Below, piece by piece: positions 40,383-64,000 of a stretch of 64,000 nucleotides of DNA; within the stretch, counting starts at the first letter, position 1; each line of letters opens with the position of its first letter. Location of the stretch: the NCBI RefSeq assembly GCF_048403405.1, contig NZ_CP183129.1; one strand, given 5' to 3'. Made by a program: the position numbers and the translations under genes. This DNA comes from Escherichia coli. Lineage in GTDB: Bacteria; Pseudomonadota; Gammaproteobacteria; Enterobacterales; Enterobacteriaceae. The notes beneath the pieces are model-generated. The model saw nothing but the letters and a program-made list of their open reading frames with translations, was not told the origin of the DNA and did no database searches.

Positions 40383-47230
<6,848 letters not shown>

Positions 47231-50949: not shown

Positions 50950-52272
50950 TCAGAACAGCGTTAAACCAATGACGAAAATGACGCCGGAGAAGAGCAGGGC
51001 AGTGATGCAATAGCCCATGATGTCGCGGACACCGAGTCCGGCGATTGCCAGTGCTGGCAGCGCCCAGAATGGTTGTGCCATGTTCATCCATTGCTCGCCG
51101 TAGGCGATCGCCATTACCGATTTACCGAGATCAGCGCCCAGCGCCTGGGCTGCGGGTATCACGAAAGGTCCCTGAATAACCCAGTGACCGCCGCCAGACG
51201 GAACGGCGAAGTTAATCAGTGCAGAACTAAAAAAGGTCATTACCGGGAAGGTGTCTTTGTTCGCAACATTGATGAAGAATTCGGTAATGAGTCCGCCCAG
51301 ACCGGAGTGCTCCATCATCAGTTGGATCCCAGCGTAGAAGGGGAATTGCACCAAAATACCGGCAGTACTGCGTGCTGCCGCGCTGATAGCACGCATATAA
51401 GCCATTGGCGTTTTATGTAGCAGCAGACCCGCAATCATAAACATCAGGTTGACGGTATTGATGGTGATGTTGAAGCCATGTTCGCTGAAGTACATCGCAA
51501 GGTAAGCGATACCGAGTGCGCCGATGATCAACGTCAGAATGCGGCTTTCTTCCAGTCGCTCGGATGGTGGGGCATCTTTCGGTAGCTGCTTTTGGAAATC
51601 AGCCTCTTCCATGAGTAGTTTCGGATCGATACTCACCACGTCAGACGGTTTTGGCATCATCATGCGGGTGATAAATGGCATCACCACAATCAACGCCACA
51701 GTGATGAAAATATTAAAACCACTGAACAGAGTATCGCCCACCGGGATCAGCCCGGCGATATGCTCAACCGGGTTGCCCGGTGTTGCAGCCAACAGAGGCA
51801 TTGAGCCAGAGAAACCGCCACCCCAGGTGAGAAAACCAATGTAGGCGCAGGCAATGAGCAACGGATAATCAGAACCGGGTACTCGGCGGGCGACTTCACG
51901 GGCAAACATTGCGCCGACAACCAAACCAAATCCCCAGTTGATGACACAAGCGACTGAACCGAAGAAAGTAACCAGCATGACGCCCTGTACGGGCGTCTTT
52001 GCGGCGGAGGCGGCAGTACGCAGCAAACTTTTTACCGGAGCAGAGCTGGCAAGGGCATGACCGGTAACGATGATAAGCGCCATCTGCATACCAAACGCCA
52101 GCAAGTTCCAGAAACCGTCACCCCACATTTTCACCATGCTGATCGGCGTTTGTGGTGTTAACCAAAGCGCGATCACGAAAGTTAGCAATGTCAGCAACAT
52201 GGCAAAGATCAGTGGATCGGGAAGCCACCGGCTGACAAAACGCGTCATAAAACGCGATATGCGACCAATCAT
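50950..52272 (-). CDS. atoE: short-chain fatty acid transporter
   Basis: 440-aa polytopic membrane ORF between atoA and atoB. Confidence 0.85.
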   Translation of the reverse strand: MIGRISRFMTRFVSRWLPDPLIFAMLLTLLTFVIALWLTPQTPISMVKMWGDGFWNLLAFGMQMALIIVTGHALASSAPVKSLLRTAASAAKTPVQGVMLVTFFGSVACVINWGFGLVVGAMFAREVARRVPGSDYPLLIACAYIGFLTWGGGFSGSMPLLAATPGNPVEHIAGLIPVGDTLFSGFNIFITVALIVVMPFITRMMMPKPSDVVSIDPKLLMEEADFQKQLPKDAPPSERLEESRILTLIIGALGIAYLAMYFSEHGFNITINTVNLMFMIAGLLLHKTPMAYMRAISAAARSTAGILVQFPFYAGIQLMMEHSGLGGLITEFFINVANKDTFPVMTFFSSALINFAVPSGGGHWVIQGPFVIPAAQALGADLGKSVMAIAYGEQWMNMAQPFWALPALAIAGLGVRDIMGYCITALLFSGVIFVIGLTLF

Positions 52273-57151: not shown

Positions 57152-60001
57152 TTGAAATACCTTGCTTCTTTTCGTACAACCCTGAAAGCCTCGCGCTACA
57201 TGTTCAGAGCATTGGCGTTAGTGCTCTGGCTGTTGATTGCTTTTTCATCCGTTTTTTACATCGTTAATGCGTTACATCAGCGAGAATCGGAAATTCGTCA
57301 GGAATTTAATCTGAGTTCCGATCAGGCTCAGCGCTTTATTCAACGTACCTCTGATGTGATGAAAGAGCTGAAGTACATCGCTGAAAATCGCTTATCGGCA
57401 GAAAACGGTGTGCTTTCCCCGCGTGGACGAGAAACGCAGGCGGATGTGCCTGCGTTTGAACCGCTGTTTGCCGACTCCGATTGTTCCGCAATGAGTAACA
57501 CCTGGCGAGGCTCTCTGGAGTCATTGGCGTGGTTTATGCGCTACTGGCGCGATAATTTCTCTGCGGCTTACGATCTCAACCGGGTATTTTTAATCGGCAG
57601 CGATAACCTCTGCATGGCCAATTTCGGTCTGCGTGATATGCCAGTGGAACGCGATACCGCGTTGAAAGCGTTGCATGAACGCATTAATAAATATCGAAAT
57701 GCACCACAAGATGATAGTGGCAGTAACCTCTACTGGATCAGCGAAGGTCCGCGCCCTGGCGTCGGGTATTTTTACGCGTTGACGCCAGTTTATCTGGCGA
57801 ACCGGTTGCAGGCGCTTTTGGGTGTCGAGCAGACTATCCGGATGGAGAATTTTTTCTTACCTGGTACGTTGCCGATGGGGGTTACCATTCTTGATGAAAA
57901 TGGTCATACCCTGATTTCGCTTACCGGACCAGAAAGTAAAATTAAGGGCGATCCTCGCTGGATGCAGGAACGCTCCTGGTTTGGCTATACGGAAGGGTTC
58001 CGGGAGCTGGTGCTGAAGAAAAATCTGCCACCCTCATCGCTAAGCATCGTGTATTCGGTGCCGGTTGATAAGGTGCTGGAACGCATTCGCATGTTGATCC
58101 TTAACGCAATTTTGCTGAATGTGCTTGCCGGAGCTGCATTGTTTACTCTCGCGCGGATGTACGAGCGACGTATTTTCATTCCGGCGGAAAGCGACGCCCT
58201 GCGACTGGAAGAACATGAGCAGTTTAATCGCAAGATTGTCGCCTCCGCGCCAGTGGGTATCTGCATTTTGCGTACCGCTGATGGCGTCAATATTTTAAGT
58301 AACGAACTGGCGCATACCTATCTCAATATGCTTACGCATGAGGATCGCCAACGGCTGACACAAATTATCTGTGGGCAGCAGGTCAATTTTGTTGATGTCC
58401 TGACCAGCAACAATACCAATCTGCAAATCAGCTTCGTCCATTCGCGCTATCGTAATGAAAACGTGGCCATTTGTGTGCTGGTGGATGTTTCTTCGCGCGT
58501 GAAGATGGAAGAGTCGTTGCAGGAGATGGCACAAGCAGCGGAACAGGCGAGCCAGTCAAAATCGATGTTCCTTGCCACCGTCAGTCATGAGCTGCGAACG
58601 CCGCTGTATGGCATTATCGGTAACCTGGATCTGTTGCAAACCAAAGAGTTACCGAAAGGCGTCGATCGTCTGGTGACGGCAATGAACAACTCTTCCAGCC
58701 TGTTGTTGAAAATTATCAGCGATATTCTCGATTTCTCGAAGATTGAATCGGAACAGTTGAAGATCGAACCGCGTGAGTTTTCACCGCGTGAAGTGATGAA
58801 CCACATCACCGCCAACTATTTACCGCTGGTGGTACGCAAGCAGTTAGGCTTGTACTGCTTTATTGAACCGGATGTGCCAGTGGCCTTAAATGGCGACCCG
58901 ATGCGTTTACAGCAGGTCATCTCCAACCTGTTGAGTAACGCCATAAAATTCACCGATACCGGCTGTATAGTTTTGCATGTTCGCACTGATGGCGATTATC
59001 TCTCTATCCGTGTTCGCGATACCGGCGTGGGGATTCCGGCGAAAGAAGTGGTGCGCTTGTTTGATCCCTTCTTCCAGGTCGGAACGGGCGTACAGCGTAA
59101 CTTCCAGGGGACCGGTCTGGGTCTGGCGATTTGTGAAAAACTGATCAGCATGATGGACGGCGATATCTCGGTAGATTCAGAACCGGGAATGGGTAGCCAG
59201 TTTACCGTGCGTATTCCGTTGTACGGCGCTCAGTACCCGCAGAAAAAAGGCGTGGAAGGGTTGAGTGGTAAACGCTGCTGGCTGGCGGTCCGCAATGCGT
59301 CGCTCTGTCAGTTCCTGGAAACCAGTTTGCAGCGCAGCGGCATCGTCGTTACAACATACGAAGGGCAGGAACCGACTCCCGAAGATGTGTTAATTACTGA
59401 CGAGGTAGTGAGTAAAAAATGGCAGGGTAGAGCGGTAGTGACCTTCTGTCGTCGCCATATTGGTATTCCGCTGGAGAAAGCGCCAGGGGAGTGGGTACAC
59501 AGTGTGGCTGCCCCGCATGAGCTACCGGCATTGTTGGCGCGTATTTATTTGATCGAGATGGAGAGCGACGATCCTGCTAACGCTCTGCCGTTAACGGACA
59601 AAGCGGTCAGCGATAACGACGATATGATGATTCTGGTCGTGGATGATCATCCGATTAACCGGCGTCTGCTGGCAGATCAGTTGGGATCGTTGGGCTATCA
59701 ATGTAAAACCGCGAATGATGGCGTCGATGCGCTTAATGTACTTAGCAAGAATCATATTGATATCGTGCTTAGCGACGTCAACATGCCAAATATGGATGGT
59801 TACCGCTTGACGCAACGCATTCGTCAGTTGGGACTGACGTTGCCGGTAATCGGAGTAACTGCTAATGCGTTGGCTGAAGAGAAGCAGCGGTGTCTGGAGT
59901 CTGGTATGGACAGCTGCCTGTCGAAGCCGGTAACGCTGGATGTGATAAAACAGACGCTAACGGTATATGCCGAGAGGGTCAGGAAATCGCGGGATTCGTA
60001 G
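57152..60001 (+). CDS. rcsC: hybrid sensor histidine kinase RcsC
   Basis: 949-aa ORF: H-box SHELRTPLYGI, HATPase domain, C-terminal receiver (DDHPINRRLL...D...K). Confidence 0.9.
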   Translation: MKYLASFRTTLKASRYMFRALALVLWLLIAFSSVFYIVNALHQRESEIRQEFNLSSDQAQRFIQRTSDVMKELKYIAENRLSAENGVLSPRGRETQADVPAFEPLFADSDCSAMSNTWRGSLESLAWFMRYWRDNFSAAYDLNRVFLIGSDNLCMANFGLRDMPVERDTALKALHERINKYRNAPQDDSGSNLYWISEGPRPGVGYFYALTPVYLANRLQALLGVEQTIRMENFFLPGTLPMGVTILDENGHTLISLTGPESKIKGDPRWMQERSWFGYTEGFRELVLKKNLPPSSLSIVYSVPVDKVLERIRMLILNAILLNVLAGAALFTLARMYERRIFIPAESDALRLEEHEQFNRKIVASAPVGICILRTADGVNILSNELAHTYLNMLTHEDRQRLTQIICGQQVNFVDVLTSNNTNLQISFVHSRYRNENVAICVLVDVSSRVKMEESLQEMAQAAEQASQSKSMFLATVSHELRTPLYGIIGNLDLLQTKELPKGVDRLVTAMNNSSSLLLKIISDILDFSKIESEQLKIEPREFSPREVMNHITANYLPLVVRKQLGLYCFIEPDVPVALNGDPMRLQQVISNLLSNAIKFTDTGCIVLHVRTDGDYLSIRVRDTGVGIPAKEVVRLFDPFFQVGTGVQRNFQGTGLGLAICEKLISMMDGDISVDSEPGMGSQFTVRIPLYGAQYPQKKGVEGLSGKRCWLAVRNASLCQFLETSLQRSGIVVTTYEGQEPTPEDVLITDEVVSKKWQGRAVVTFCRRHIGIPLEKAPGEWVHSVAAPHELPALLARIYLIEMESDDPANALPLTDKAVSDNDDMMILVVDDHPINRRLLADQLGSLGYQCKTANDGVDALNVLSKNHIDIVLSDVNMPNMDGYRLTQRIRQLGLTLPVIGVTANALAEEKQRCLESGMDSCLSKPVTLDVIKQTLTVYAERVRKSRDS

Positions 60002-60002
60002 G

Positions 60003-60086
60003 GCGGATAAGGCGTTTACGCCGCATCTGGCATTCAGTGCAAATGCCAGATGCGACGCTGACGCGTCTTATCTGGCCTACAGATGA
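60003..60086. repeat. REP element(s) between convergent rcsC and rcsB
   Basis: ggcggataaggcgtttacgccgcatctggca ... gccagatgcgacgctgacgcgtcttatctggcctac. Confidence 0.6.
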
Positions 60087-60753: not shown

Positions 60754-63426
60754 CTACAGCAAGCTCTTGACATAACTGTCAATGTCGCTGATGTATTTTT
60801 CTATTCCTGGAACATCCTTTTCACGAATCAGATGTTCCAGCGTTTCACATAACTGCTTGCCGGGTACCAGATTTAGCATGGCAAACACGCCTTTAAGACG
60901 ATGAGCCGTTTGGGCTAACGCAGCAAAGTCACTGGTTGCTGCTTCAGTATACAGCCTCTTAACATCATCCGGTACTGTGTCTACAAAGAGCGCATAATAG
61001 CCGCTGGCATGGAGTTGCGCATTTTCATCTCCGCCCAGAGGCGATTCTGTCACCTCTTCCTGCGCCAGTTGCACTTCAATTAATTGTAAGACCGCTTCCT
61101 GCATAGCGTTGCTCATATTGAAGTTGACGCACAATTGACCAGGCCCAATTTCCCGTACGCCAGACTCATCATCGCTTAAAAGCAAGCCAGAGGCAGTAAG
61201 ATTAGACGGATTATCCGTTAAAAAGATATCATAATCTTGACTAATTAATCTTTCATCGGGTGTGATACAGGTTGCACCCCAATTTTCTAACTGGCGAGTG
61301 ACAATATTCCGAATTTCTGCCGAAGTAACATCCACCATTACGCAGACATCATCCAGTAAACGCTCTTCTTCCTCTTCAACTTCCGGGTCAGCTGCGAGCA
61401 TTTTGATATGCACAGAGTAGCGTGTACCAAGCCCATCCCGCGTTTTAATGTTTAAATGACCGCCCAGTTTACGTGCCAGTTGATCGCTCAGCCAGAATGC
61501 CAGCGGGTCCGCCTTGCCATAGCGATCGTTTTGGGTCTGGTTGATAAACGGGAAGTGCAAATTATCCATTTCATGAATGCTTACGCCTTCTCCGGTGTCC
61601 AGAATGCGGAACGTCAGGCGGTCTTCGGAGGACTCATCCTGATCAACCTCAAGGGTGATTTTTCCCAATTGCGTTGAGGTCACGGCATATTGCATCAGTA
61701 GCAGCAAAATGCGTCGTAAGGCATCGCGATCGCCGCGGCGCATATCGTGTGCTTTCAGATGATTGTTAATCAGCAGTTGCAGACCTTTACGCTTGATGGC
61801 AGGCAACACTGAAGGCACAACTTCATCAATTAAATCCTGCACGGAGAACAGCACCGTCTCACTTTTCCAGCTATCATCCGCAAGCATGTTCGCTAACTGT
61901 ATTTCATCGACCAGCCGCACCAGCACATCTGCCTGATTCGCCAGTTGTTTGCTTTCCGGGGCGTTGAGTTTAGCCGCGCTCTCCGCCAGGGACTGTGCAG
62001 GTTCTTTCAGCGCATCGCCAATGTTTTTCATAAAGGTCATCCGCCCCTGCTGGTTTTTCTCATACAGACGCTGCGCCTGCTTGAGTTTCTTGTTTACCAG
62101 CACTTCGCGATCCTGATCGCGAATAATGAAAATTTGTGTGCGCGGCGCGACCTGGCTGCGGAACATGCGGATCTCATACAGCTCGTTATTGATCGTCGCC
62201 TGAATAATCCCCTGATGCTGTTCCGCCATGGTGGTGATGTTTTGCAGATTCAAATGCGGCAGCAAATGATCGGCAATTTTGTTACTTATGACAGTGCGGT
62301 TCGATTCCTGATCGTGAACCAGCAGGCCAAGCGGCAGCAGTGAGACTATCTCTTCATTGATTGCACGTAAAATGCGCAATTCGTTATTGACCGCCGTGCT
62401 GGGGACGTTTTCTGTACTGCGGCTGGAGAAATGGCGGAATGTGGTATAGCCAAATAACGCCAGCGCCAGCAAACCGATATTCAGCAGCAGTGGCAGCAGA
62501 ATGTTTTGCAACGTATCCAGCAGTAAGGTGCCATAAGGAACCTGCCAGACCAGGCGCATATCGGTAGAGTTGAGTGCCGAGGAGATTTCAATCTTCGTAC
62601 TGTTAAAGTGGATACTGACGCTATCCGTCCCTTCTTTCTCATTATCATTGTTTCCCGTTGCCGTCGCGTCTGGCTCAAGGCGGAAACTGTCCAGCGGCAT
62701 GCCCGGTGGGATCAAATCATTAATCGGCAGATCAAAAGCCACGACCGTTGCCAGATGTCCCGGCTGGTTAAAGGTAGTACGCAAGGTAAAGTAATGACCG
62801 TTCTGCCAGGCTAGGCGGCGCATGTTAGAAAAGCTTTCGCGTTCATCGAGGGCGTTGGCCTGTTGCAACATCTCTGCACGACGTGAATCAACAATGTCGC
62901 TGACGGTCGATTCTTTAAATCCGGAGGTGAGATCTTTAAGGGGCAGGGTTGAGATCAGCACCAGGCTGTTATCCTGACCATTCAGGTAATACATCGACCA
63001 CGGTACATTTTCTGCGCCCCACAATGTATCCAGATAAGTGGACATCCGTTGAGTCATCTCAAGCGTTGAGTTGTCGTGAGAGCCAAAGATTAACGCTTCC
63101 GTTTTGCGGCGCGGTTTTTCCAGATAGTAGACATCCTGTTTCAGGCGCGTCTCTTGTAAACCTTCGCCGGAGGAGGGGGAGGTCGTCGCGGCAATGTTGT
63201 CGTAGATCTGCCAGGTCACGTAACGCCAGGTATCGACGCGCTTTTGGATTGCGTGGGTAATGTCGACAATCTGGTAACTTTTATCTTTCAGCCAGGCGTT
63301 AACGGCGCTTTGTACCATTACTCCCATCGTCACCAGTAACACAATGATCAACAGTAAAAAGAAGCGGGTAATGCTCCCCGGTAGGAGTGAAAAGCGGGTC
63401 GTGGCCGTTGTCTCTTTCTGACGCAT
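60754..63426 (-). CDS. rcsD: phosphotransfer intermediate RcsD
   Basis: 890-aa ORF with N-terminal TM/periplasmic region and C-terminal HPt domain; upstream of rcsB. Confidence 0.9.
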   Translation of the reverse strand: MRQKETTATTRFSLLPGSITRFFLLLIIVLLVTMGVMVQSAVNAWLKDKSYQIVDITHAIQKRVDTWRYVTWQIYDNIAATTSPSSGEGLQETRLKQDVYYLEKPRRKTEALIFGSHDNSTLEMTQRMSTYLDTLWGAENVPWSMYYLNGQDNSLVLISTLPLKDLTSGFKESTVSDIVDSRRAEMLQQANALDERESFSNMRRLAWQNGHYFTLRTTFNQPGHLATVVAFDLPINDLIPPGMPLDSFRLEPDATATGNNDNEKEGTDSVSIHFNSTKIEISSALNSTDMRLVWQVPYGTLLLDTLQNILLPLLLNIGLLALALFGYTTFRHFSSRSTENVPSTAVNNELRILRAINEEIVSLLPLGLLVHDQESNRTVISNKIADHLLPHLNLQNITTMAEQHQGIIQATINNELYEIRMFRSQVAPRTQIFIIRDQDREVLVNKKLKQAQRLYEKNQQGRMTFMKNIGDALKEPAQSLAESAAKLNAPESKQLANQADVLVRLVDEIQLANMLADDSWKSETVLFSVQDLIDEVVPSVLPAIKRKGLQLLINNHLKAHDMRRGDRDALRRILLLLMQYAVTSTQLGKITLEVDQDESSEDRLTFRILDTGEGVSIHEMDNLHFPFINQTQNDRYGKADPLAFWLSDQLARKLGGHLNIKTRDGLGTRYSVHIKMLAADPEVEEEEERLLDDVCVMVDVTSAEIRNIVTRQLENWGATCITPDERLISQDYDIFLTDNPSNLTASGLLLSDDESGVREIGPGQLCVNFNMSNAMQEAVLQLIEVQLAQEEVTESPLGGDENAQLHASGYYALFVDTVPDDVKRLYTEAATSDFAALAQTAHRLKGVFAMLNLVPGKQLCETLEHLIREKDVPGIEKYISDIDSYVKSLL

Positions 63427-63737
63427 TCGTGTTTATGACCTGTTAAAACTTCGCGAAGTGATAGGGCAGTATAAAGGGTACAGTGTGAAATTCCAGACTC
63501 TTACCTGATTGATGATTCTCTATTCTCCCGTGATATTTATCATCCTGCATTGGGGGAAATAGATGTACAAGCGCCATTTTGCTGTACAAATAACCTACAA
63601 AAAGCCCAACGAAATTAATTGCAAATAAACGAAGATTGCTGGAAATTATGCTAATGTTAATTATTTGTGAAATAGTTAACAAGCGTTATAGTTTTTCTGT
63701 GGTAGCACAGAATAATGAAAAGTGTGTAAAGAAGGGT

Positions 63738-63830
63738 AAAAAAAACCGGATGCGAGGCATCCGGTTGAAATAGGGGTAAACAGACATTCAGAAATGAATG
63801 ACGGTAATAAATAAAGTTAATGATGATAGC
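63738..63830 (-). ncRNA. micF: MicF small regulatory RNA (antisense regulator of ompF)
   Basis: Minus strand reads GCTATCATCATTAACTTTATTTATTACCGTCATTCATTTCTGAATGTCTGTTTACCCCTATTTCAACCGGATGCCTCGCATCCGGTTTTTTTT with terminal hairpin and U-tract. Confidence 0.85.
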
Positions 63831-63980
63831 GGGAGTTATTCTAGTTGCGAGTGAAGGTTTTGTTTTGACATTCAGTGCTGTCAAATACTTAAGAATAAGT
63901 TATTGATTTTACCCTTGAATTATTATTGCTTGATGTTAGGTGCTTATTTCGCCATTCCGCAATAATCTTAAAAAGTTCCC

Positions 63981-64000
63981 TTGTATTTACATTTTGAAAC
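63981..64000 (+). promoter_or_regulatory. start of ompC promoter OmpR-binding site (TTTACATTTTGAAAC)
   Basis: Window ends in ttgtatttacattttgaaac, matching the remembered start of the ompC C1 OmpR site; ompC itself is outside the window. Confidence 0.5.

Follow-up and report, generated by a model that had tools for sequence, protein, structure and literature searches.

A micF gene with the common allele and a truncated ompC promoter at the end of a 64,000-nucleotide Escherichia coli sequence

The end of the window, i.e., of the whole 64,000-nucleotide stretch of Escherichia coli DNA analyzed here, corresponds almost certainly to the standard rcsD-micF-ompC junction of E. coli, which the window edge interrupts. 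The micF gene is present with its common allele at its textbook locus, which is already known and makes for a correct boundary note rather than a discovery; for routine annotation, it means an intact micF with an intact stress-responsive promoter at the window end.

The genes leading up to the edge are rcsC (plus strand, 57152..60001), rcsB (minus strand), rcsD (minus strand, 60754..63426) and micF. The order rcsC-rcsB-rcsD-micF-(ompC) is that of K-12, read in reverse, and that of the RefSeq annotation of the genomes with an identical edge; the micF-ompC locus was found in about 99% of the complete E. coli genomes. The spacer separating the 3' end of micF from the start codon of rcsD (63426, minus strand) is 311 nt long (63427..63737) and shows six base differences from K-12 in the alignment. 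Three mechanically called open reading frames in and around this region (63443..63682, minus strand; 63636..63773, plus strand; 63657..63884, minus strand) were rejected as coding sequences on account of their overlap with micF or its promoter and of the lack of any RefSeq gene annotated there in K-12 or in the relatives. Between rcsC and rcsB, a match to the Rfam family naRNA4 (RF02564) was recorded at 60001-60077, scoring 73.4 bits on the plus and 51.6 bits on the minus strand; it is an ordinary REP/BIME-type palindromic element located directly after the rcsC stop codon.

The micF gene and its product

The micF small regulatory RNA gene occupies positions 63738..63830 on the minus strand: it is 93 nt long and its +1 is the G at 63830, based on the alignment with the K-12 ncRNA b4439. 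The Rfam family RF00033 matches at full length (63738..63831, minus strand, model positions 1-94 of 94) with a score of 116.8 bits (E 5.9e-19), the gathering score being 79, and 92 of the 93 bases are the same as in MG1655 b4439 in the alignment. The initial annotation, which had called micF unambiguous on the minus strand, was thus borne out by both comparisons, and the position at which it had placed the beginning of this region, 63738, is exactly the 3' end of the gene. A match to micF is missing in only 52 of the 5,426 complete E. coli genomes.

The sole difference from K-12 in the alignment is at 63749 (minus strand), where the 3' arm of the terminator stem has C for U in the window, so that a G-C pair replaces a G-U pair. 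The C allele is the Rfam consensus, and the 93-nt sequence of the window is identical in 3231 of the 5374 complete E. coli genomes, i.e., it is the majority allele, K-12 belonging to the minority class.

The predicted secondary structure has the anatomy expected of MicF: the 5' region is free, a small hairpin follows internally, and the RNA ends in a strong terminator and its U8 tail. The 5' seed, which consists of nucleotides 1-13 (GCUAUCAUCAUUA; 63818..63830, minus strand), is identical to that of K-12 and is unpaired in both the minimum free energy and the centroid folds; these 13 nucleotides have been reported to play a role in target pairing, and they pair with the ompF and lrp mRNAs (PMC11676804). 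The intrinsic terminator hairpin detected by the terminator scan (63744..63766, minus strand) has a 10-bp stem including six G-C pairs and a 3-nt loop, and its U8 tail, the 3' end to which Hfq is known to bind, extends down to 63738. The minimum free energy of the fold is -21.4 kcal/mol (z = -5.4), as compared with -18.5 kcal/mol in the case of the K-12 allele, the predicted structure being the same.

Since a single base change from K-12 could in principle matter, it might be asked whether the match corresponds to a decayed or non-functional copy of micF, but nothing else speaks for this reading and its probability is negligible. The change at 63749 restores a G-C pair and makes the terminator 2.9 kcal/mol more stable, the allele carrying it matches the Rfam consensus and is the commonest one in the species, and neither the seed nor the promoter differs from K-12. 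Taken together, the Rfam match, the K-12 alignment, the fold and the allele frequency effectively refute the idea of a non-functional copy, and the gene is read here as an ordinary micF.

Known inducers of micF are MarA, SoxS, Rob and OmpR, and its known repressors are Lrp and H-NS (PMC3617542, PMC11676804, PMC12152304, PMC5175337). With the help of Hfq, the unstructured 5' end of MicF pairs with ompF, lrp and other mRNAs in their translation-initiation regions, resulting in their repression (PMC12152304, PMC11676804). In the following scheme, what was obtained here (sequence identity, the predicted structure, the positions of the sites and synteny) is combined with Hfq binding, target pairing and regulator occupancy as described in the literature. 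The window micF would be transcribed leftward, on the minus strand, from its own promoter, in which a weak core is combined with a class II marbox; under antibiotic or oxidative stress, activation of micF by MarA, SoxS or Rob would proceed via this marbox. The resulting 93-nt RNA, with its predicted single-stranded 5' end, internal hairpin and Rho-independent terminator ending in a U tail, would bind Hfq, as established in the literature, and its seed would pair with the translation-initiation region of the ompF mRNA and also with lrp and others, so that less OmpF would be synthesized and the permeability of the outer membrane would be lowered. OmpR-P bound at C1-C2-C3 would activate the divergent ompC gene and contribute to the activation of micF as well. 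The ompF gene lies outside the window; given that the pairing region of MicF is identical to that of K-12, it is very likely that the window micF pairs with the ompF translation-initiation region and represses OmpF.

The micF and ompC promoters

The window retains 170 bp upstream of micF, and the promoter from -1 to -81 shows no difference from K-12 in the alignment. The -10 hexamer, TAGAAT (-13 to -8; 63838..63843, minus strand), is identical to that of K-12 and was assigned by its spacing to the annotated +1. The micF promoter was not called by a strict scan for the sigma-70 consensus, as is to be expected because this promoter is activator-dependent. A plus-strand sigma-70 match at 63665-63692 was set aside as being within chance (one found versus 1.8 expected).

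The MarA/SoxS/Rob marbox of micF (ACAGCACTGAATGTCAAAAC) is located at 63862..63881 (minus strand), i.e., from -51 to -32, in a class II position overlapping the -35 region, and is also identical to that of K-12. It shows a single mismatch to the consensus AYNGCACNNWNNRYYAAAYN and includes the exact 15-mer gcactgaatgtcaaa, which a MarA ChIP-seq study has assigned to ompC<>micF in E. coli (PMC5684230). The signature described in the case of the class II micF promoter, CACT-7N-AAA centred near -41 (PMC8811837), is present in the marbox with the same arrangement and centre. The scan with the marbox consensus gave four matches in the window versus 1.45 expected, a number which was reached in 7 of 100 shuffles; since these consensus statistics alone are not significant, the assignment is based on the identity with the ChIP-seq site and on the position. 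MarA, SoxS and Rob act here on micF, via the marbox overlapping its -35 region, and not on ompC. According to the initial annotation, the remaining control sites of OmpR and those of MarA, SoxS, Rob and Lrp were cut off by the edge: this holds true in the case of the OmpR sites C2 and C3, but the marbox lies wholly inside the window. On the micF side, the edge removes solely the OmpR-dependent upstream element, which starts about 156 bp from the micF +1. As regards Lrp, the consensus YAGHAWATTWTDCTR with up to two mismatches gave 17 matches in the window versus 8.8 expected, one of which is at 63639..63653, and none were found in 63832..64000.

On the ompC side, the window stops inside the first OmpR site, as had been noted from the outset. 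The 15 bases TTTACATTTTGAAAC at 63986..64000 (plus strand) match exactly the beginning of the 20-bp C1 core, the last 5 bp of which lie beyond the edge, and of the last 24 bases of the window, 23 agree with the 5' part of an oligonucleotide published for C1 of the ompC promoter (PMC2586830), with no matches expected by chance. In K-12 and the edge-identical genomes, the sequence continues with ATCTA, which completes C1, followed by C2, C3, the TTGGAT and GAGAAT hexamers, a 5' UTR of about 79 nt and the ompC start codon. The ompC core promoter and 5' UTR are therefore beyond the edge, and so is the gene, in line with the statement that ompC was cut off: its ATG is 165 nt past base 64000 in K-12 and in the five to six edge-identical genomes. 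The ompC start site was taken from the spacing to the -10 hexamer and from the literature, and positions were counted on the continuation of strain 144 and on K-12. We take C1 to extend from about -100 to -81 and the window to end at about -86 from the ompC start site, with a margin of 2 nt either way.

Between 63738 and 64000 there are three differences from K-12 in all (63749, 63912 and 63984). Apart from the one in micF, these are a C for the K-12 A at 63912 (plus strand), in the spacer, at -82 from the micF +1 and about -174 from the ompC start site (shared by all five close relatives aligned), and a T for the K-12 C at 63984 (plus strand), 2 bp upstream of C1 and at about -102 from the ompC start site in the alignments. 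The last 60 nt of the window, including the T at 63984, are identical in 454 of 5153 genomes and therefore constitute a minority allele. This number is close to those of the genomes carrying the 574-nt edge (63427..64000) at an identity of at least 99% (just 511 of 5376) and an ompC coding sequence of ST38 type at an identity of at least 99% (518). The edge is 100% identical in many genomes and has no match in 50 of the 5,426 complete E. coli genomes. The proximity between the number of ompC alleles (518) and that of edge alleles (454-511), which are counts over genomes rather than per-genome linkage, is consistent with co-inheritance.

Whether these variants (the T at about -102, the C at 63912 and a C at about -2, outside the window) alter OmpR occupancy or promoter strength is a separate matter. 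The similar counts do suggest that the promoter haplotype is co-inherited with an allele found by experiment to lower beta-lactam permeability (PMC6970295), and if the variants had such effects, ompC and micF would be regulated unlike those of K-12 within the low-permeability phylogroup-D ompC haplotype. This seems very unlikely, as the variant at -102 is outside the 20-bp C1 core and every base of C1-C3 is unchanged, the effect on permeability has been credited to the pore-lumen residues D137 and E195 and not to the promoter (PMC6970295), and shared ancestry alone would lead one to expect linkage with a divergent gene at a distance of 250 bp. There is correspondingly little chance that the minority haplotype accompanying the phylogroup-D ompC allele may itself retune OmpR-dependent ompC and micF expression; if it did, recombinant lineages importing the tract would gain a regulatory change in addition to the pore change. 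The reading retained here is that of a standard junction with lineage-specific base differences.

ompC and the closest genomes

The first 24 kb of the window are about 100% identical in seven genomes only, four of which (MS 69-1, TUM1226, strain 4621 and isolate 68) also share an IS1-sized insertion with it and are the closest. The closest genome overall is that of MS 69-1, which is exact over 1-41000 and, in the last 24 kb, shows two indels and no mismatches. The genome of strain 4621, isolated from blood in Houston, has about 100% identity to the window and the same linear order, the IS1-sized insertion included. The region 63427..64000 is identical in the five genomes aligned (strain 144, 4621, MB31, MS 69-1 and TUM1226), and beyond the edge these five are mutually identical save for one base in 4621.

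Some other differences among these genomes were recorded inside the window. The IS1-sized insertion is located at about 25467-26234 and amounts to about 777 nt (768 nt together with a duplication of 9 bp), with a terminal repeat at 26212..26234 (minus strand); it is present in the window, MS 69-1, TUM1226, 4621 and isolate 68 and absent from MB31, GN02461 and TUM14771, and marks a narrow sub-lineage. In a gene of the alpha-2-macroglobulin family (about 42715..47230, plus strand), the window has seven A at 43450-43456 where MS 69-1 has six, a number which the remaining top genomes seem to share (24000-nt spans versus a 24001-nt query). The extra A splits this 4.5-kb gene into two open reading frames (42610..43464 and 43358..47230) and reflects either a genuine frameshift or a sequencing error in the homopolymer. 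In atoE (minus strand), 10 nt present in the window at about 51299-51308 are deleted in MS 69-1, where atoE is annotated as frameshifted; the window allele is intact.

The relatives encode an OmpC of 364 amino acids (WP_000865539.1), which is only 90% identical to that of K-12 and has Asp in place of G137 and Glu at the position of R195. D137 combined with E at the R195 position is the signature of the phylogroup D (ST38-type) OmpC; the ST38-type allele has been reported to reduce susceptibility to several beta-lactams including ertapenem, and the phylogroup-D ompC has spread by recombination, for example in a 22.7-kb tract introduced into an ST167 subclade (PMC6970295). The same study connects ompF, the OmpR boxes of the ompF promoter and ftsI with this resistance trajectory. 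As far as the interpretation of resistance is concerned, the edge tract carries the reduced-permeability ST38-type OmpC in every edge-identical genome examined. The edge and the ST38-type ompC were both found to be 100% identical in strains such as M217, WCHEC005237, CRE1493 and AR435, which are absent among the matches listed for the 24-kb segments deeper in the window, a pattern which fits the recombinational spread of the phylogroup-D ompC tract (PMC6970295).

Not all the relatives have kept this porin. The ompC gene of strain 4621 (NZ_CP103479.1) has a GAA>TAA change at codon 237 (Glu237-stop), its annotation being that of a pseudogene interrupted by an internal stop, so that among the four closest genomes ompC is intact in three and nonsense-mutated in one. 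The source strain of the window may likewise have lost OmpC by a nonsense mutation, an insertion sequence or a promoter lesion located directly past the edge, in which case the truncated promoter would drive a dead porin gene and the loss would contribute to beta-lactam or carbapenem non-susceptibility. The stop codon occurring in 4621, in spite of its near-identity to the window and its shared IS1-sized insertion, lends some weight to this idea, and so does the history of antibiotic selection to which the GyrA substitutions S83L and D87N testify. OmpC loss is nevertheless rather improbable: MS 69-1, TUM1226, isolate 68, MB31 and strain 144 all encode the intact 364-residue protein (WP_000865539.1 in every case), the promoters of these relatives are identical to one another, the genomes with an intact ompC include that of MS 69-1, the closest overall, and no sequence inside the window bears on the question.

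Since three of the four closest genomes are intact and 4621 carries the Glu237-stop, the porin state of this strain cannot be inferred from them; the initial annotation had rightly considered that ompC variation was not assessable from the window, and the split among the relatives agrees with this view. The gyrA gene (plus strand, from 37607) encodes the classical fluoroquinolone-resistance double mutation in the quinolone resistance-determining region (QRDR), S83L plus D87N, and this supports the premise that the strain is antibiotic-resistant. A porin-loss allele being present in the immediate lineage of the window, in strain 4621, the next 1.3 kb would be worth reading, which is a matter of the extent of the data. 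The standard rcsD-micF-ompC junction remains the reading of the window end itself.

Comparison with known loci

The region expected beyond the edge resembles the phylogroup D/ST38-type ompC region described by Patino-Navarrete et al. (2020; PMC6970295) in that both diagnostic residues occur in all the edge-identical genomes examined; it differs in that the gene is outside the window, its assignment to this strain being deduced from the relatives.

In comparison with the C1-C2-C3 region of the K-12 ompC promoter, the 15 bp of C1 retained are identical, and in the edge-identical genomes C1-C3, the -35 and -10 hexamers and the UTR are all alike save for a T>C change at about -2. The dissimilarities are the C>T change at 63984 and the fact that three quarters of C1 are in the window.

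A third likeness is that between the window micF and K-12 MicF (b4439; RF00033). They share the length of 93 nt, the 5' seed, the internal hairpin and the terminator architecture, as well as the promoter from -1 to -81 with its -10 hexamer and marbox, and the position between rcsD and ompC. They differ by the single base at 63749, C for U, the window carrying the majority allele of the species and K-12 a minority one.
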